From: a virus
Lineage: Duplodnaviria; Heunggongvirae; Uroviricota; Caudoviricetes
IMG/VR virus record: IMGVR_UViG_2728369554_000008
Coordinates: 1 to 12,160 of that record
Length of the DNA: 12,160 bases
Reading direction: 5' to 3' (one strand)
A program made the translations under genes and the position numbers. Positions 1 to 12,160 of the stretch are shown piece by piece. Under the pieces are notes generated by a model, which did not search any database, was not told the origin of the DNA, and worked only from the letters and a program-made list of their open reading frames with translations. How positions within the stretch are numbered: position 1 is the first letter of the stretch; the number at the start of each line of letters is the position of its first letter.

Positions 1-339
1 TTATAATTTGTTACTGTGCCACTCAAGGGCAATATCTTTGAAGGTGTTGTTTAACTGCGTTTCCCGGGCAATCTTTTCCTCTCGCTTCACTTCCATCAGA
101 TCGATTCCCCCAGAGATACCTCTTTTAGCTTCTTCAAGTTTTGCAGGAGCATCAGCTAAGGTGACCTCAGGATACACACCTAGTGCTAACAGCTTCTCTT
201 TACCAGCTACACGATACTTGAGACGCCAATATTCTCCTCCACCAGGTTTTACCAGGAGGTACAGACCACCACCATCAGCCAACTTGTAAGCCTTCTCTTT
301 TGGCTTGGCAGTGTCTATTTGACGGGCATTGAGTTTCAC
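1..339 (-). CDS. P4-type tyrosine integrase, N-terminal arm-type DNA-binding domain only (112 aa; probably a truncated remnant)
   Basis: Minus-strand ORF starting at GTG 337-339 with GGAG about 9 nt upstream; the complement of positions 1-3 is TAA. Translation MKLNARQIDTAKPKEKAYKLADGGGLYLLVKPGGGEYWRLKYR...EWHSNKL matches the conserved N-terminus of P4-family integrases, which are normally about 400 aa, so the catalytic domain is missing from this frame. Confidence 0.7.
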   Translation of the reverse strand: MKLNARQIDTAKPKEKAYKLADGGGLYLLVKPGGGEYWRLKYRVAGKEKLLALGVYPEVTLADAPAKLEEAKRGISGGIDLMEVKREEKIARETQLNNTFKDIALEWHSNKL

Positions 340-493: not shown

Positions 494-537
494 TGGTGCG
501 ATAATAGGAGTCGAACCTACGACCTTCGCATTACGAA
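494..537 (-). other. tRNA 3'-half remnant (tRNA-Thr(CGU)-like); putative attachment-site direct repeat, not a complete tRNA gene
   Basis: Reverse complement of 494-537 reads TTCGTAA-TGCGA-AGGTC-GTAGG-TTCGACT-CCTAT-TATCGC-A-CCA: anticodon loop with CGU, variable loop, T-arm with GGTTCGAnTCC, acceptor 3' strand and CCA. Sequence upstream of the anticodon loop (538-570) has no D-arm or 5' acceptor strand, and the acceptor strand is one nt short of canonical length. Confidence 0.6.
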
Positions 538-898
538 TTATAAGAATCCGCTTCTAATTCAAAGCATTACCCCATCAACACTGCGCTCACACGTCCCACC
601 ACATCAAAACATGTAAAGCCTTGCAAGCCATTGCGAGGCCTTATGTGTCTCAGTTTTGTCCCACCTTGTATTACGACTTGCATAGCCAATGAAGATAAAC
701 GTGACGACAAACGGCGCAGCAGTCTTCTTTTCCTTCATACTTTCCCCACCCAGCATGCATACCTTTATGCCATAACTGAAGTTTATGTCTGTTATGAGCG
801 AGGAGCGGAAGTCCGCAATTGTTCTTGCAACTAGGGCAGCTAAAAGACATGGCAGGCAAATGTCTACATGTAGGATACACCTGCTATCATAAAGAATC

Positions 899-1678
899 TT
901 AGTCCTGAAGCATTTTAACTTTCTTCTCATGCTTTTTATATTCGCCATTTATCCATTCAGGTTCTTCCCGAATAGCTGATCGCATACAGTGTGTTGGGAT
1001 ATCATTCCAGAAAGCTGTAATCGCATCTGCAAACTCTATAAACTGTGTTTCTGTAACCTCAAGTTGCTCATGACGTAGACTAAATCTATAGCCTCCTGGA
1101 ATATTGATATCCTGATAATACTCAGGATGCGCGACGGAAAGCTCCCGATGGGCATGGCCATCACCGTGCTTATAAACATTGACTACTTGGCGACAGGCAT
1201 CGATTTTTTCGTAATAAGCCTTGCCGGTGATATCCATCCCAACCCATTCTAGAATTTCAATTAGCCTTGGGAAGCCGATGTCCCAGATCATCGATGTTAC
1301 GGGTTTAGAGTCGAGCCAATGACTGAATTCACGGATACACTTTTCTCGAAGTTCCTTATCGAACTGGTGAAACATTCCTGCTGTCAGAGCAAGTGAAACC
1401 GTATTTTTCATATCACTGAGGGCAATCCAATGTGAAATTCCTTCATCATAAGCCTGTTCCCAGATAGCCCCCTCGTCGTCATAATCGGGGTCAAAACGCT
1501 TACCGGCGGCCTCATAGTAATCTTTTTCTTTCTGCCGAGCTTCAGCTTCAAGATCAGAATCGCTAAACTGCGAAAATAAACGTTTTCTGGCTTCAGAAAC
1601 ATAAAAATTGTGTTTGTCGAGGAAGTAAGCCCGATCAATGGTTGCAAAATAAAAAAGTGAAAAATCTTTTTCGCTCAT
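899..1678 (-). CDS. Hypothetical acidic protein, about 259 aa, function unknown (accessory cargo)
   Basis: ORF track gives 899-1756. The start is placed at the internal ATG (1676-1678) because GAGGGAG lies 6 nt upstream; the protein then begins MSEKDFSLFYF. It is rich in D/E, has an HGDGHAHRE segment, and matches no structural-phage motif I recognise. A hand count of line 1201-1260 gives 24/60 G+C. Confidence 0.7.
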   Translation of the reverse strand: MSEKDFSLFYFATIDRAYFLDKHNFYVSEARKRLFSQFSDSDLEAEARQKEKDYYEAAGKRFDPDYDDEGAIWEQAYDEGISHWIALSDMKNTVSLALTAGMFHQFDKELREKCIREFSHWLDSKPVTSMIWDIGFPRLIEILEWVGMDITGKAYYEKIDACRQVVNVYKHGDGHAHRELSVAHPEYYQDINIPGGYRFSLRHEQLEVTETQFIEFADAITAFWNDIPTHCMRSAIREEPEWINGEYKKHEKKVKMLQD

Positions 1679-2007
1679 GGGGATCTCCCTCGTTTCGTCA
1701 GTTCTACAAGCCCTTGGAAGTAGGCTGCTAATAAAGAAAAGATTACATTTGAACAACTGTGCAAGATAGCAGTACGCCTAAAGGTAGTGCAAGTATCCCA
1801 ACTAAGGTAACGATGCGTTTTCAAATATATGACTTAACGCTCGCGATATCCGCTTCTGGCACGAGGCGGACAGAACATGTGGACATGACGTCAGCTCTAA
1901 GCGAGGAGCTGATGCTAGCGGGGTAGGTTCAGTACAATCATAGGAGAGATCCAAAGTGTGCAGACACTGACTAAATTAAAGAAAATAGCATCTACGCTAT
2001 ATGGATA

Positions 2008-2928
2008 TTAATAATGTCTATGACGAATATCATTATACGCAGCCTCGGAAAGTTCGAATACCCGATCCAATCCGGAATGGGGTAATTCCACAACCAATCC
2101 CCGCTGAATAAGTTTATCGATCTGCATTAAAGCTATTTTATCTACAATAGATCGAGATAACTTAGGCGTTGCACCCAATAATACAGCTTTATATACTTCC
2201 ATAATTCTTACAATACTAGGCTCCCGATTACTATGCCTTAATTTAATAGCGCGAGTGAAACTAGGAAGCGAAAACTGTCGTCCTGACATGTTAAGTTCAA
2301 CATGTCCATAGAACATGTTAAATAGAATCCTTCGAAGTCCTTCATCAGATGATAAATAATCTATTAATTCTTCTTGTCTCTTTTCTTGAATCCAAGTTCT
2401 AATAAAGAGCCATCCTGATAATAACGATACACATAATAGATAGTATTGCGAATCAGGGAGCTGTAGCCAAGGTCCAATGATTGGGTTATCTTTAGCCGTA
2501 TTGGGAAACGTAAAAAAGAAAGCGCTTAGCGTCGCAAATACTCCTGACCCCAATCGAGGGAGAAATGCACGGGATCGTGTATCACTCCGAACTTCTGACT
2601 TTATTAATGAAGGCGTCAGACTAACAGTCTGAGTTCCTGTCGCAGTAATCACTTTAACCAAATCCATCACTTGTGACATGGGTATCAACTGTTTGTCATT
2701 TTCATCCGTAGATTTCTCAATAGACTGATTATCAATGAATTCTTTTGCTGAATTAAGGTGTTGCCATAGATTTTTTGACTCATCATCAATAAAAATACCA
2801 CTAGTATTGTCTGGATGTATTGATGCCATTTTTCTGACTATTGCCTGGCGTAACCCATTTGGGTCATTTTCCATAACATTAGAAAACTTAAAATATGCAG
2901 CAATTTCTTTATTATTTTTCCAGTCCAT
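2008..2928 (-). CDS. Hypothetical protein with two central hydrophobic segments, about 306 aa, very AT-rich (accessory cargo); start uncertain (2928 or 3003)
   Basis: ORF 2008-3003 in the track. No Shine-Dalgarno precedes the first ATG at 3003; the ATG at 2926-2928 (MDWKNNK) follows an AT-rich promoter-like stretch. Hydrophobic segments LGSGVFATLSAFFFTF and YYLLCVSLLSGWLFI. A hand count of line 2101-2160 gives 19/60 G+C. Confidence 0.65.
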   Translation of the reverse strand: MDWKNNKEIAAYFKFSNVMENDPNGLRQAIVRKMASIHPDNTSGIFIDDESKNLWQHLNSAKEFIDNQSIEKSTDENDKQLIPMSQVMDLVKVITATGTQTVSLTPSLIKSEVRSDTRSRAFLPRLGSGVFATLSAFFFTFPNTAKDNPIIGPWLQLPDSQYYLLCVSLLSGWLFIRTWIQEKRQEELIDYLSSDEGLRRILFNMFYGHVELNMSGRQFSLPSFTRAIKLRHSNREPSIVRIMEVYKAVLLGATPKLSRSIVDKIALMQIDKLIQRGLVVELPHSGLDRVFELSEAAYNDIRHRHY

Positions 2929-3472
2929 AGTAATTCTGCCCAATGAAGTAAAATATAAAATTTTATTTTTTCGTTTAGGTTGAGGTTTAATTAACAAAAG
3001 CATTAATGCTAAATCAAACGATAGTTCGCAATGACAATATAAACGTTTTCAGTGAGTTAAGCAATACTAGGAAATTATGAGACAGATTACGTCGCCTCCA
3101 CCATAATGATTAACGAACCGTACTTTTTGCAAAGTCCGCATCTGGCACATAGCAGACCAGAGACACTGGCGTAAAGCCATGGAGGATCGGTGGGAGGAGG
3201 TAAAAATCCTCTCATGCAAAAAATACGCAAAATCGATAACAGTTGGAAATCATTCAATACTCGCACTATCGAAAGTTCACCAGCCAACCGCAGCGCGTTC
3301 TTGCATACGACGTGGCTGCGGTTTCAACTCCGTCCCCCACCAATCATGATTGGGCAGTACCAGTACAGCACTAGTAAAAACTGGAAATAAGCAGTCTCAG
3401 CAAAATACCGGCCAGACGGTGAGAAGACAAAAAAGATACGCAAAGTAGCCGCGGCCCTTAGTGACATGAAAT

Positions 3473-3492
3473 CCCGCTATACGGGCTTTTTT
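3473..3492 (+). terminator. Candidate intrinsic terminator or attenuator hairpin upstream of the 3568 gene
   Basis: CCCG-CTATA-CGGG stem-loop followed directly by CTTTTTTGT on the plus strand. The stem is short (4 GC pairs), so function is uncertain. Confidence 0.3.
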
Positions 3493-3567
3493 GTATCTGC
3501 ACACGATTGATTATTAGGTCCGTATAGCTAATAGTGGTCTTAACCTACATATAGAATCAGAGACTTT

Positions 3568-4263
3568 ATGAAAAAGGAAATACTCAAGGCTCTTTGCCCT
3601 ACATGCGGTGGGTTACGTAACTGCACTGTGCATGGGAAGCTAACCACTAGCTGGGAGGATTCCCAATATCCAGTTTATGGGTACCATTACCATCACCTAC
3701 TCCAATGCAATGGCTGTGATACTGTCTTCTATCACCACAACGAACACTTCAGTGAGCATACTACCCACGAATATCGTGATGGTGAATTTGTAGAAACGCC
3801 TATAGATATGATCACTACCTATCCTGCCGCTGAAACATTTCAAGCTCCGATATGGTTATCCAAGCTTGAATCAGTTGATCGTCAGCTCTTTCAAATATTT
3901 AATGAAATGTATTCTTCATATACTTCTGACCATTTCATCCTTTCGTCCATCGGTTTACGGACGATTTTTGATCGAACTGCTGAACTGTTACAAATTCACC
4001 CCGGTTTGCCGCTTGGTGAAAAAGTTGAAAAATTAAAACAAGATGGAGTCATAGGCGACACTGAGGCATGCGTTATATCTTCTGTAATTGATGCAGGAAA
4101 CGCCGCCGCACATCGCAGTTGGAGCCCGAATAAAAGTGAGTTCGAACAAATGCTAGAAGCTATAGAAAGTTTTGTCCAAAGAACTATCTTGGGCAAAAAA
4201 TCACTTGAACATATAACCAAACAACTCCCACCTCGGGTTACAAGACCTAAAAATAGTGCATAA
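3568..4263 (+). CDS. Zinc-ribbon plus DUF4145-like domain protein, 231 aa (candidate accessory/defence gene)
   Basis: N-terminus has CPTC (x33) CNGC, a four-cysteine zinc-ribbon pattern. The C-terminus LGEKVEKLKQDGVIGDTEACVISSVIDAGNAAAHRSWSPNKSEFEQMLEAIESFV fits the remembered DUF4145 pattern (L-x-x-K-I-x-x-L, then G-N-x-A-A-H). A hand count of line 3901-3960 gives 22/60 G+C. It is convergent with the invertase gene. Confidence 0.8.
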   Translation: MKKEILKALCPTCGGLRNCTVHGKLTTSWEDSQYPVYGYHYHHLLQCNGCDTVFYHHNEHFSEHTTHEYRDGEFVETPIDMITTYPAAETFQAPIWLSKLESVDRQLFQIFNEMYSSYTSDHFILSSIGLRTIFDRTAELLQIHPGLPLGEKVEKLKQDGVIGDTEACVISSVIDAGNAAAHRSWSPNKSEFEQMLEAIESFVQRTILGKKSLEHITKQLPPRVTRPKNSA

Positions 4264-4289: not shown

Positions 4290-4847
4290 TTATGGTTTAC
4301 TTGCTACAGGGAATTTTTTATACACCGTTGAAATACCCAGATCATAAATCAGTGCGACTTGCTGCTGATATATTCCCGATTCAATCAACCTGCCAGCCTG
4401 CTCCCATTGTTCTACTGTCAGCTTTGGCTTTCGCCCACCATTCCTCCCTTCTTGTCGTGCTGCGGCAAAGCCCGCCCTAGTACGTTCGACAATAAGCTCT
4501 CGCTCCATTTCAGCCAGGGCACCCATCACATGAAAGAAAAAGCGCCCCATTGGTGTGCTGGTATCAATAGCATCCGTCAGGCTGCGAAAATTAACGCCAC
4601 GTTCGCGCAACTCCTCCACCAGCACGACAAGATGCCGCATACTGCGCCCCAGTCGGTCCAGTTTCCAGACTACCAGAGTGTCACCTGCTGATAATGTTCT
4701 GAGCAGTTTTTTCAGTCCCGGTCGGTCGGACTTAGTGCCGCTGATCTTATCTTCAAAAATCAGCTCACATCCTGCACACTCCAGCGCATTACGCTGCAAT
4801 TCCGTATTCTGGTCATTTGTTGATACGCGGACATAGCCAATAAGCAT
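4290..4847 (-). CDS. pin: Site-specific DNA invertase, serine recombinase of the Pin/Gin/Hin/Cin family
   Basis: Translation MLIGYVRVSTNDQNT...GDTLVVWKLDRLGRSM...MGRFFFHVMGALAEMERELIVERT with a C-terminal helix-turn-helix: the catalytic Ser in YVRVST and the hallmark motifs of DNA invertases. The start is set at the ATG (4845-4847) preceded by AGGGGA; the track's extension to 4892 is not supported by family alignment. Confidence 0.95.
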   Translation of the reverse strand: MLIGYVRVSTNDQNTELQRNALECAGCELIFEDKISGTKSDRPGLKKLLRTLSAGDTLVVWKLDRLGRSMRHLVVLVEELRERGVNFRSLTDAIDTSTPMGRFFFHVMGALAEMERELIVERTRAGFAAARQEGRNGGRKPKLTVEQWEQAGRLIESGIYQQQVALIYDLGISTVYKKFPVASKP

Positions 4848-4874
4848 GAGCATTCCCCTGAGTAAAAACCGGGG

Positions 4875-5414
4875 ATGATGCCAGTTAGCCATAATCTCTG
4901 CATTTTCTTAAACGTTGGTTTGGGAGAAGGCTCTGCATTACCTGTTGGTGTCCCTGTTCCGTGGCCTTCAGCCACACCGCCAACAGGCTGGCTGAAATGC
5001 AATGGTGCCGCTTTTTCTGCTGAAGAATACCCGGAACTGACAAAGGCTTATCCGACAAATAAATTGCCTGATTTACGTGGTGAGTTTATTCGTGGCTGGG
5101 ATGACGGGCGGGGGATTGATACAGGTCGCTCTATTTTAAGTATTCAGGGGTATGCAACGGAGGATCATGCTCATGGATTACCGTCAAGATCCACGATTGT
5201 GACTGATGCAACGATTAATTTCTATTTTGATGAAAACTGGGTAAATAGTGGCACTGACATTATCAAAAGAGGAAACACAAACGATGCCGGATTACCAGCA
5301 CCGGATTATGGAACCTTTAAAACATATAAACAATCAGTGGCTGGTTTAGGTACCGCAGCCTCAGAAACGCGTCCGCGTAATATTGCATTTAACTATATCG
5401 TAAGGGCAGCCTGA
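4875..5414 (+). CDS. Alternative tail-fibre C-terminal cassette (Sv'-type), currently in the unexpressed orientation; functional coding begins at the crossover site near 4917
   Basis: Translation across the site reads NVGLGEG, matching NLGLGEA in the constant part of the tail-fibre gene at 6812-6837. Downstream motifs WLKCNGAAFSAEEYPELTKAYPTNKLPDLRGEFIRGWDDGRG are typical of Mu/P1/e14-type fibre tips. There is no plausible independent start; the ATG at 4875 lies in the invertase upstream region. Confidence 0.8.
   Translation: MMPVSHNLCIFLNVGLGEGSALPVGVPVPWPSATPPTGWLKCNGAAFSAEEYPELTKAYPTNKLPDLRGEFIRGWDDGRGIDTGRSILSIQGYATEDHAHGLPSRSTIVTDATINFYFDENWVNSGTDIIKRGNTNDAGLPAPDYGTFKTYKQSVAGLGTAASETRPRNIAFNYIVRAA
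4903..4928. repeat. Invertase crossover site 1 (hix/gix-like, 12-2-12)
   Basis: Plus strand TTTTCTTAAACG-TT-GGTTTGGGAGAA. Its reverse complement shares TTCTCCCAAACCAA with site 2, and it lies about 56 bp upstream of the invertase start. Confidence 0.8.
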
Positions 5415-6016
5415 TGCATAAAGCAATATTAAATAGTGAGCTTATTGCAACAAAGGCAGGGGATGTTACCGTTTATAACTACGATGGTGAAACACTGGAA
5501 TATATTTCCACGTCAACTGAATATCTTGCTGTGGGTGTCGGTATTCCGGCATGTTCCTGTCTTGATGCACCTGGCATACATAAGGTTGGTTATGCAATCT
5601 GTCGTTCTGTGAATTTAAATTCATGGGAATATGTGCCAGACCATCGCGGTGAAATCGTCTATAGCACCGAAACAGGAGAATCAAAAGAAATCACAGCTCC
5701 GGGTGATTACCCTGAAAATACAACCACTATCGCCCCTTTATCTCCATACGATAAATGGGATGGTGAGAAATGGGTGACCGATACTGAGGCACAGCATAGC
5801 GCCGCAGTCGAAGCGGCAGAAGCACAACGCCAGTCACTGATTGATGCTGCAATGGCTTCCATTAGTCTGATTCAGCTGAAATTACAAGCCGGACGGAAAC
5901 TGACGCAGGCAGAAACAACCCGACTTAACGCCGTGCTGGATTACATTGACGCGGTGACGGCAACAGATACCAGCACCGCGCCGGATGTCATCTGGCCTGA
6001 ACTGCCGGAGGCGTAG
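5414..6016 (+). CDS. Tail-fibre assembly protein (Tfa/U'-type), partner of the silent fibre cassette
   Basis: Its ATG overlaps the TGA of the preceding cassette (TGATG). The C-terminus LDYIDAVTATDTSTAPDVIWPELPEA parallels the C-terminus of the opposite-strand Tfa, as in paired U/U' chaperones. Confidence 0.85.
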   Translation: MHKAILNSELIATKAGDVTVYNYDGETLEYISTSTEYLAVGVGIPACSCLDAPGIHKVGYAICRSVNLNSWEYVPDHRGEIVYSTETGESKEITAPGDYPENTTTIAPLSPYDKWDGEKWVTDTEAQHSAAVEAAEAQRQSLIDAAMASISLIQLKLQAGRKLTQAETTRLNAVLDYIDAVTATDTSTAPDVIWPELPEA

Positions 6017-6431
6017 GCCATTCAATATCTGGAGCACTGGAGATATCCACCAGTTCCAGTGCGTCCAGGTAATCCAGCCACAAATTATATTGCGCCAGTT
6101 CCTCGCCTTTCAGACGACCAATAGCGGCTTTACCGGGCCATTGTTTACTGTTCATGTATTCGTTGGCCTGGTTAATTAGTAGCTGTCTTTCTGATTCAGT
6201 AATTTCAATAAGCTCTTCATGCGTGGGTGGAGGAATATCTGCCCACGCAGGCAGCCCATCATCTCCGGCAATACGGATTTTTCCTTGTGGCGGTTCAGCC
6301 ATAAACTCACTGATAATATTTTGATTTACTTCCTTAGCGTCTGATAAATCCCATCCCTCTGATTTATATTTATCAATCATATCCACAGGGAAAAAAGCAT
6401 TATGCCTTGCGCTATAAACATATTCGTTCAT
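5988..6431 (-). CDS. Tail-fibre assembly protein (Tfa/U-type), partner of the expressed fibre
   Basis: Start is set at the ATG (6429-6431, MNEYVY) preceded by AGGGTGA; the track begins at an upstream GTG (6440). C-terminus LWLDYLDALELVDISSAPDIEWPTPP. Its 3' end overlaps the convergent Tfa gene by about 29 bp. Confidence 0.85.
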   Translation of the reverse strand: MNEYVYSARHNAFFPVDMIDKYKSEGWDLSDAKEVNQNIISEFMAEPPQGKIRIAGDDGLPAWADIPPPTHEELIEITESERQLLINQANEYMNSKQWPGKAAIGRLKGEELAQYNLWLDYLDALELVDISSAPDIEWPTPPAVQAR

Positions 6432-6451
6432 ATAAATCACCCTGAATAAAA

Positions 6452-10790: not shown

Positions 10791-12160
10791 AGCACTGGCA
10801 CCTTCAGAGGGATCACCGGCACAAAGCCGGGATGCGTAATGGCATTACGCCGGATAATGTCCGCGTCACGCGCCGCGTTATCAAACCAGGTCGCCGCCAG
10901 CACCAGCGCGGGTAAGACCTCATCCGGCGTGCGCTGAATGATCCGTGCAGACTGTTCAAGGCGCGTGTTGATATCCGCATTCAGATCTGCTTTCACCCGG
11001 CGCAGCGCCAGAAACAGCGCATCACTGGTTGTACGGGACAACTCCTTATCAATTGCCGTATTCAGTGTGTCGCGAATGTCAGTCAGTTCTTCCCACGTCG
11101 GCAGGTCAACCGTGTTTTTCACCGCCGGTGCATTGTTCAGTGCCGGATGCGTGACGGAAGGCCAGCCGGTGCTCTGCGCGGGTGTTGTTGACTGCCCCAC
11201 TGCGGCATTCTGCATCACCGCGGAAATTGTTGGCGCAGGCAATCGGGTGATGGCATACGCCGCTTCGCTGATTGCGGTCGTACGAAGGGTGCTGGCAACC
11301 ACGTTACGCTGCTGCGTTGCCGTGGCGGTGGTTTTACTGTCCGTTTTCCAGACGCCGCGCGGTTGCAGATCGCTGCCGAGGCTGACACCGGAAAGCGTTT
11401 TGATCATGGTGACCAGGTCGCTGGCGTTACCATAAAGGCGTTTCCCGGTACGCCACATTTTCTGCACCTGCTCAACGAAATTTTTGCCTGACGATGGCGG
11501 CGGCAGAAGTACCGAGATATCCCCCTGCAACAGCCTGGCGGCATCCGATACGGCAGAATCCACCACTTTCATCGCATCAGAAACATACCCCAGCATTATG
11601 CTGGCATTACCGATAACGTCGTTCTGCACGAAATCCGCCACACCATCGATACTGAAACCGCTGAAGCTGTCACTGATGCAGTCATCCAGTGCAGAACAGG
11701 ATGACATCAGCGTCTGCGCCGTCGCCACACCTGATGTGGGGTAAGAGAGTTCTCCTGCTTCGACAAACTTCAGGTCAAAGCGGACAATACGCCCTTCACT
11801 TTTCGATGTGCTGACCCGAACTTCCCCGTCAACACAGACTTTCAGCTCACCATATGTCGGGTGGACAAGCGTGCCGGGACCGGGTTTATTCAGCGCTTCA
11901 ATCAGGCGATCGCGCTGGTCAAAGCAGTCATCTCCCACCACATAAGCTGTGATGGACGGGCGGAAAGTGACTTTTCCCAGATCTTCGGTATAGGGCTTGT
12001 CGCGGTTCGGGTATTCGTGCGTTTCCACACGACGACCGGTTCCCGCACTTTCTTCTTCAACCTTAAACGGCACACCTCGAAATGATGCTTCAAGTAGCTT
12101 TTCACGCCAGCCACTTCGAGAATCAGAGGATAGGTACGAAGAAATATGAGAAAAATCCAT
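10787..12160 (-). CDS. Mu gp43(N)-like DNA circularisation protein; the ATG coincides with the window edge, so the true start may lie outside
   Basis: N-terminal region WREKLLEASFRGVPFKVEEESAGTGRRVETHEYPNRDKPYTEDLGKV...GPGTLVHPTYGEL matches the DNA circularisation N-terminal domain as I remember it, followed by a long Ala/Thr/Ser-rich region. Overlaps the gp44-like start by 4 nt. Confidence 0.85.
   Translation of the reverse strand: MDFSHISSYLSSDSRSGWREKLLEASFRGVPFKVEEESAGTGRRVETHEYPNRDKPYTEDLGKVTFRPSITAYVVGDDCFDQRDRLIEALNKPGPGTLVHPTYGELKVCVDGEVRVSTSKSEGRIVRFDLKFVEAGELSYPTSGVATAQTLMSSCSALDDCISDSFSGFSIDGVADFVQNDVIGNASIMLGYVSDAMKVVDSAVSDAARLLQGDISVLLPPPSSGKNFVEQVQKMWRTGKRLYGNASDLVTMIKTLSGVSLGSDLQPRGVWKTDSKTTATATQQRNVVASTLRTTAISEAAYAITRLPAPTISAVMQNAAVGQSTTPAQSTGWPSVTHPALNNAPAVKNTVDLPTWEELTDIRDTLNTAIDKELSRTTSDALFLALRRVKADLNADINTRLEQSARIIQRTPDEVLPALVLAATWFDNAARDADIIRRNAITHPGFVPVIPLKVPVL

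Follow-up and report, generated by a model that had tools for sequence, protein, structure and literature searches.

Stand-alone HEPN proteins of the Abi_2/AbiD/AbiF, PD-T4-5 and DUF4145 type are single, all-helical proteins of about 230–280 aa. They are encoded by accessory genes in restriction operons or on prophages, and stand-alone Abi/HEPN genes occupy positions in R-M loci that are comparable to the one described here. In these features they resemble the protein which is the subject of this work, the 259-aa product of a gene at the end of a prophage within the window, as we call the whole stretch of 12,160 nt of viral DNA that was analysed. The likeness extends to location and to one motif: in other genomes an Abi_2/PD-T4-5 gene lies in the same slot between yeeA and yeeB as our gene, in the window a DUF4145 gene lies 1.9 kb from it, and with Abi_2 it has in common an N-x3-H spacing where a long helix ends. 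However, our protein is without the Arg of Rx4-6H and has the core K-H-G-x-G instead, its family profile aligned to neither the Abi_2 nor the DUF4145 profile with more than 1% probability (hhalign), and it has no Pfam match.

PrrC and RloC are latent effectors within restriction operons, where they form a second line of defence, a concept close to the role that we propose below. They carry an N-terminal ABC-type ATPase, whereas Pfam searches matched no NTPase, ABC or P-loop domain in our protein or in 118 members of its family. Moreover, they are linked to type I R-M systems, whereas the host system of our family is of the YeeABC/MmeI type. The HEPN-MNT toxins (SO_3166, PDB 5yep; 7ae2; DUF86) have about 135 aa instead of 259, share 6–8% identity with our protein and possess an Rx4H-x-Y motif that is absent from it. 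They also come with an adjoining MNT antitoxin, whereas no antitoxin-type ORF or Pfam match of this kind flanks our gene in the window and none is recurrent beside the solo copies in other genomes.

The cluster YeeA(DnmA)-YeeB-YeeC has been described as MmeI-related (Morgan et al. 2009, PMC2731913). In B. subtilis, dnmA-yeeB-yeeC consists of three genes without a fourth (PMC9973331, PMC2731913) and gave no protection against three phages under the conditions tested (PMC9973331). For Vibrio crassostreae, inactivated yeeA and yeeB are reported to render the cells more phage-sensitive (10.1101/2021.05.05.442762, as cited in PMC9973331). The gap between the yeeA-like and the yeeB-like gene is the commonest genomic home of our family, but the family is not among the three described components, and for the copy in the window neither the ORFs nor Pfam revealed YeeABC genes within the 12 kb.

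The gene and its position in the prophage

The longest ORF listed at window positions 899-1756 on the - strand starts with a TTG and would encode 285 aa. The ATG at 1678, from which the 259-aa product is translated, is the biologically sensible predicted start, not the TTG. The alignments with homologues begin at this ATG, the GAGGGAG in front of it is kept in the E24377A and Serratia alleles, and RefSeq contains the identical 780-nt coding sequence as a "hypothetical protein" of E. coli CFE299. Judged from comparative sequence data, the ORF is a genuine and intact gene, far beyond chance, because its family comprises 92 clusters at 90% identity and 1,427 representatives at 50% identity and because the protein matches phrog_19541 with an E-value of 1.7e-121. 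The product is acidic (pI 5.13), with 18.5% D+E versus 12.4% K+R, and residues 171-179 read HGDGHAHRE. The initial annotation had described a D/E-rich protein of about 259 aa, read from an ATG with a GAGGGAG site and containing this stretch, and was correct in all of these points.

Table 1. Features of the window and their coordinates
Feature	Position	Strand	Remarks
P4-type integrase, N-terminus (Arm-DNA-binding)	1-339	-	belongs to the next island
thrW att fragment, last 45 nt of tRNA-Thr(CGU)	494-538	-	anticodon loop to CCA, 1-nt deletion
3' flank common to the E24377A allele	790..898	-	end of the mobile unit of ~1.07 kb
Coding sequence (259 aa) with its stop codon	899..1678	-	WP_025269809.1, phrog_19541; uncharacterised family member
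Family signature V166-N-V-Y-K-H171-G-D-G174	1157..1183	-	codons; V-N-x-x-K-H-G-x-G
Second conserved strip H104-Q-F-D-K-E-L-R111	1346..1369	-	codons; consensus H104-x2-[DE]107-K108-x2-R111
5' flank travelling with the gene	1679..1854	-	~176 nt, common to the E24377A allele
Shine-Dalgarno-like GAGGGAG	1685..1691	-	6 nt 5' of the ATG at 1678
DUF4145 gene	3568-4263	+	PF13643, 8.8e-10; phrog_1305
Gin/Pin-type serine invertase	4290-4892	-	Resolvase+HTH_7 Pfam match

From position 12160 down to about 4900 the window is occupied by Mu-like tail and baseplate genes with a GC content of 55-60%. A block of only 35-45% GC contains the DUF4145 gene, a gene for a 306-aa protein (2008-2928) and the gene studied here. 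The latter is the last cargo gene before the attR of a thrW prophage, because a thrW att repeat and the integrase of the next island lie beyond it. By its sequence the thrW fragment is taken as the att repeat of the prophage, and the prophage itself can be classified as SfV/Mu-tail-like, integrated into thrW of E. coli, with our gene at its attR end. Scans of the window with ARAGORN and against Rfam made no calls, since thrW is present as a fragment only. The designation as cargo in the initial annotation therefore holds: the gene is low in GC and lies between the tail-fibre invertase and the thrW att fragment.

Some further observations concern the surroundings. The sequence of a thrW fragment and then an integrase N-terminus suggests that two elements were integrated in tandem at thrW. 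The invertase abuts oppositely oriented ORFs for a tail-fibre C-terminus and for tail-fibre assembly (4875-5414 +, 5414-6016 + and 5988-6440 -), and the region 4290-6440 looks like an invertible host-range segment. The DUF4145 gene adjoins the invertase on the opposite strand and its product has a Cys-rich N-terminal segment; the block of DUF4145 gene plus invertase is far commoner in E. coli prophages than the block with our gene.

Conserved signature and predicted fold

Searches of the protein against Pfam, NCBIfam and PADLOC gave no match, in line with the initial annotation, which had recognised no family. PADLOC 2.0 matched neither the window protein nor an operon-type homologue, and 118 family members searched against Pfam with E-values up to 10 pointed to no recurrent family. 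PDB sequence searches were empty for the single protein as well as for the family profile, Foldseek of the predicted model against PDB and BFVD returned nothing significant, and no match turned up when 50,697 deposited phage genomes were searched by tblastn. Thus, the remote-homology and structure-based searches that had been suggested for this protein, covering Pfam, the PDB profile search and Foldseek versus PDB/BFVD, did not connect it to a known family. The possibility that it is a YeeC paralogue devoid of the nuclease was rejected, as hhalign of the family profile against YeeC was negative. In the full-text literature nothing was found for the accession numbers of the family and its PHROG id, nor for the combination of HEPN, MmeI and helicase. 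HEPN-like genes as accessories of restriction operons or prophages are a known theme, but the libraries and the literature searched contain no description of the family, of its signature without the arginine or of its link with the YeeABC slot.

Conservation was calculated over 118 diverse representatives with identities down to about 21%. The signature (Table 1) is nearly invariant, with H171 at 100%, N167, K170, G172 and G174 at 99% and V166 at 94%; F223, W224 and P228 are conserved to 97-99%. In the second strip position 107 is D or E in 98% of the representatives, K108 is found in 87% (plus 7% R), R111 in 89% (plus 9% K) and H104 in 81%. According to the structural model, these residues share one face of a long helix formed by residues 69-118. 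The conservation of the signature patch points to a site for catalysis or for the binding of a ligand.

The AF2 model (pLDDT 93, pTM 0.88) is all-helical without a Rossmann-like core, and the modelled fold may resemble that of HEPN proteins, enzymes that work in dimeric form. The spacing of N167-x3-H171 equals that of N and H in the R-N-x-x-x-H of the Abi_2 neighbours (RNRIAH). The canonical HEPN motif Rx4-6H is absent in the family, as examined over the 118 representatives: the position of the HEPN Arg is taken by V166, and the nearest arginine, R163, is conserved to 70% and stands at x7 spacing.

Two of the 50%-identity representatives are chimeric. P0153 joins family residues ~1-185, including VNVYKHG, to a T5orf172/MUG113 domain, and P0216 joins residues ~1-138 to DUF2971. 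Either protein could be a true fusion or have arisen by deletion within an operon.

Operon and prophage contexts and a possible role in defence

We surveyed loci that carry members of the family, namely 25 viral contigs from IMG/VR and the 80 best loci from GTDB. In 43 of the latter our gene is immediately preceded by one for a ~925-aa MmeI-type methyltransferase (yeeA/dnmA-like) with MmeI_N, hel, Mtase, TRD and C domains (PADLOC REase_MTase_IIG, 1.5e-269), and downstream follow genes for a ~690-aa DEAD/ResIII helicase (yeeB) and a ~400-aa T5orf172/MUG113 protein (yeeC). The genes at these junctions mostly overlap by 4 nt, and the hosts of these operons are many alpha-, beta- and gammaproteobacteria. 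Both flanking genes are present in 41 GTDB loci, and 17 of these contain extra genes between our gene and the helicase gene, namely Abi_2/PD-T4-5, YhcG/DUF1016 or RhuM. The Abi_2/PD-T4-5 gene was found directly after our gene in the slot. In one locus (L016) a GmrSD_N+SLFN/AlbA_2 protein is encoded upstream of yeeA, at 1976-4183.

Whether the family is core or accessory to the cluster was assessed in metagenome loci anchored on YeeC, 40 of which had both methyltransferase and helicase. Of these, 16 had no insert between the two genes and 22 had inserts of more than 350 nt, and hmmsearch with the family profile detected the family in three of the 40. It is accessory, because only these three loci carry it, and on the same count we rejected the idea of a core subunit of YeeABC. 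Other occupants were RhuM, PLD-like and CoiA_N-like genes and several genes for 138-394 aa without a Pfam match. Thus, yeeA and yeeB enclose a hypervariable accessory slot, comparable to those in type I R-M loci, and our family is one portable occupant of it.

At least 35 of the 80 best GTDB loci are solo, among them every relative that is ≥47% identical to the window protein. Their neighbours are integrases, NYN-LOTUS, DUF5677, BrxL, UvrD helicases and phage tail genes, as well as an R-M pair consisting of an EcoRII-C domain protein and a C-5 methylase; a recurrent partner gene was not found beside the solo GTDB loci. The copies on viral contigs adjoin tail fibres, invertases, nin-region genes and HNH genes. 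Members of the enteric clade are all carried alone, as cargo of prophages or islands, far from YeeABC genes.

We propose that the gene forms an accessory cassette of its own (a "moron") and acts autonomously at the attR end of the thrW prophage. The family of its product would combine an all-helical, HEPN-like fold with the invariant patch N-x-x-K-H-G-x-G. Most likely, the protein would by itself serve as a second-line effector against phages: a latent nuclease of HEPN-like type, with RNA as its probable substrate, would be triggered during infection and arrest the cell, and the population of lysogens would be protected. The positive charge of the usual HEPN arginine might be provided by K170 or R111. 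For this reading as a whole, a HEPN-like accessory cassette that acts autonomously, probably in phage defence, and encodes a latent nuclease, we estimate a probability of roughly 0.45, because we infer several of its steps, namely the defence role, the nuclease activity, the trigger and the link to restriction. The solo copies next to integrases, tail-fibre/invertase modules, nin-region genes, the R-M pair, BrxL and UvrD-type helicases argue for an effector, as do the N167-x3-H171 spacing, the place of the family in the yeeA-yeeB slot beside Abi_2/PD-T4-5, YhcG and RhuM genes, and the phage sensitivity reported for V. crassostreae. Against it count the lack of the HEPN Rx4-6H and of a profile link to Abi_2, DUF4145 or Pfam, the empty Foldseek results for PDB and BFVD, and PADLOC, which holds no model for the family. 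The B. subtilis YeeABC cluster, which gave no protection, and the window copy, which has no YeeABC in its 12 kb, point in the same direction, and a toxic nuclease without a visible antitoxin would require self-restraint.

A bolder form of the effector reading, which we regard as rather doubtful, is that the family consists of unrecognised HEPN-like enzymes that dispense with the arginine and use N-x2-K-H-G-x-G together with the [DE]K-x2-R strip for catalysis. They would then be portable Abi effectors that ride in the accessory slot of YeeABC/MmeI-type systems and work alone on enterobacterial prophages.

The main alternative is a non-catalytic helical adaptor or regulator that couples or tunes YeeA, YeeB and YeeC, with the solo prophage copies being orphans, relics or modulators of another host system. 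Most operon copies overlap tightly, by 4 nt, with yeeA and yeeB, as would suit co-translation and stoichiometry, the catalytic dyad of canonical HEPN proteins is missing, and in P0153 the first ~185 residues are fused to the T5orf172 domain. However, the scarcity of the family in the YeeC-anchored loci (3/40) and the 16 of these without any insert mean that the system works without it, and the B. subtilis cluster makes do with three genes (PMC9973331, PMC2731913). Furthermore, the N-x2-K-H-G-x-G patch is still invariant in the 35 or more solo loci out of 80 and in the whole enteric clade, which is solo throughout. We therefore consider an adaptor unlikely.

A somewhat less probable explanation is a phage-side function, either counter-defence, in which a copied R-M accessory protein would act as a decoy and interfere with host restriction, or another lysogenic-conversion factor, a moron unrelated to defence. 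The enteric clade does reside on prophages in moron positions, and Hdf-like anti-restriction genes occur near two viral loci. But most members of the family are chromosomal and lie in restriction-like operons, co-oriented and overlapping with host genes. Moreover, a phage-borne gene of this kind contrasts with the absence of matches in the 50,697 deposited phage genomes and with its rarity in E. coli, where 18 of 5,426 complete genomes have it.

Independence from the neighbouring gene

The gene at 2008-2928 is on the same strand and separated from ours by 329 nt, in agreement with the distance of about 330 bp given by the initial annotation, which had considered the two as partners in a two-component module. 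Co-occurrence across genomes does not bear this out. Relatives of the 2008-2928 gene were not found within 6-7 kb of our family in any of the 80 best GTDB loci or the 25 IMG/VR viral loci, nor were relatives of our gene found within 4 kb of 2008-2928 homologues in six loci. The pair is confined to two near-identical E. coli prophage ends, those of the window and of CFE299, and the latter is the only one of the 18 complete E. coli genomes with our gene that has both. In nine E. coli genomes our coding sequence is intact and IS1 stands in the place of the neighbour; in NZ_CP162160.1 (7192-8631 of locus L002) and in eight others an IS1A replaces the largely deleted 2008-2928 gene, and in the strains AH02, AH04 and CT01 from among these an IS66 element is additionally present.

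The gene has also moved without its neighbour. An allele of 95% identity is located in a lambdoid prophage with other neighbours in six genomes, including E24377A and SE11, and when the two E. coli alleles are aligned, homology is seen only over window positions ~790-1854. The shared unit of ~1.07 kb consists of the coding sequence with ~176 nt on its 5' side and ~108 nt on its 3' side. Since homology is limited to this stretch, the gene moves alone, presumably with its own promoter in the 5' flank. A consensus scan of this flank (1679..1854) gave no promoter; by eye a weak extended -10 candidate, TGCTATCTT, can be picked. Separate transcription from 2008-2928, as the initial annotation had suspected, is probable, as merely the ~176 nt of 5' flank travel with the gene. 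Decay of the gene may be seen elsewhere: a fragment relative of 147 aa (P0092, 63% identity over a third of the protein) occurs on 562 E. coli contigs, and two complete genomes (H42/H43) keep just the last 189 nt. Both look like decayed copies.

In the gap between the two genes, the palindrome noted in the initial annotation exists as a 7-bp stem (TCAGCTC...GAGCTGA), but it has no T-tract. Scans of 1679-2007 for promoters, terminators and inverted repeats reported nothing, and among 100 shuffled sequences 7 folded at least as well as the gap (z -1.6), which is unremarkable. The annotation had also called the upstream protein hydrophobic. Overall it is not (GRAVY -0.26, no 19-aa window above 1.4), although two moderately hydrophobic segments are present, at about aa 127-141 and 161-179. 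The 306-aa protein has an invariant H38-P39-D40 following a DnaJ-like helix. A profile of eight homologues searched against PDB hit four chains only (1bqz DnaJ, DNAJB2, DNAJB8 and HCG3), all of them J domains and in register, with E-values of merely 1.4-1.9; Pfam DnaJ did not match the protein. It looks like a diverged member of the J-domain proteins, to which two hydrophobic helices are added, and is by itself a candidate for a single-gene defence or chaperone-hijacking protein. Its family is tiny, with eight clusters versus 92, a difference of about 10-fold. Homologues with 81-85% identity reside in a Klebsiella integrase island by type I hsdR and in Proteus by Gabija-like genes; in the Klebsiella loci a type I R-M system with an AAA_13 gene lies nearby, and in Proteus the Gabija-like genes are OLD/TOPRIM plus UvrD. 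The neighbourhoods of these homologues and of L016 are defence islands.

As the two genes do not co-occur elsewhere, an outcome that the initial annotation itself had named as refuting, a two-gene module is refuted at the comparative level. Their common strand, the 329 nt between them, their place in one low-GC cargo block and their renewed adjacency in CFE299 would fit such a module, but in view of the co-occurrence counts (0/80, 0/25 and 0/6), the unit common to the E24377A allele that leaves the neighbour out, the nine genomes with IS1 and the unequal family sizes we regard it as most improbable. Hardly more credible is an acidic protein that binds metal through the histidines of HGDGHAHRE, as had also been supposed: three His within seven positions and an acidic surface would suit it, but family-wide conservation in this stretch is limited to H171, G172 and G174, with position 175 variable and 177 an F or L in 84% of the representatives, so that this cluster was rejected as a local accident.

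For the annotation of the window it follows that the cargo consists of independent single-gene cassettes and not of a two-component system. If the defence reading is true, a widespread unnamed family becomes a testable single-gene anti-phage candidate with a motif that departs from the canonical HEPN site. Should the family indeed be Abi effectors without the arginine, its size of at least 1,400 clusters at 50% identity would place it among the larger single-gene defence families that lack an annotation, and it would offer a handle on how YeeABC-type systems get backed up. More defence genes can be sought in the slot that yeeA and yeeB enclose in the MmeI-related YeeABC operons.
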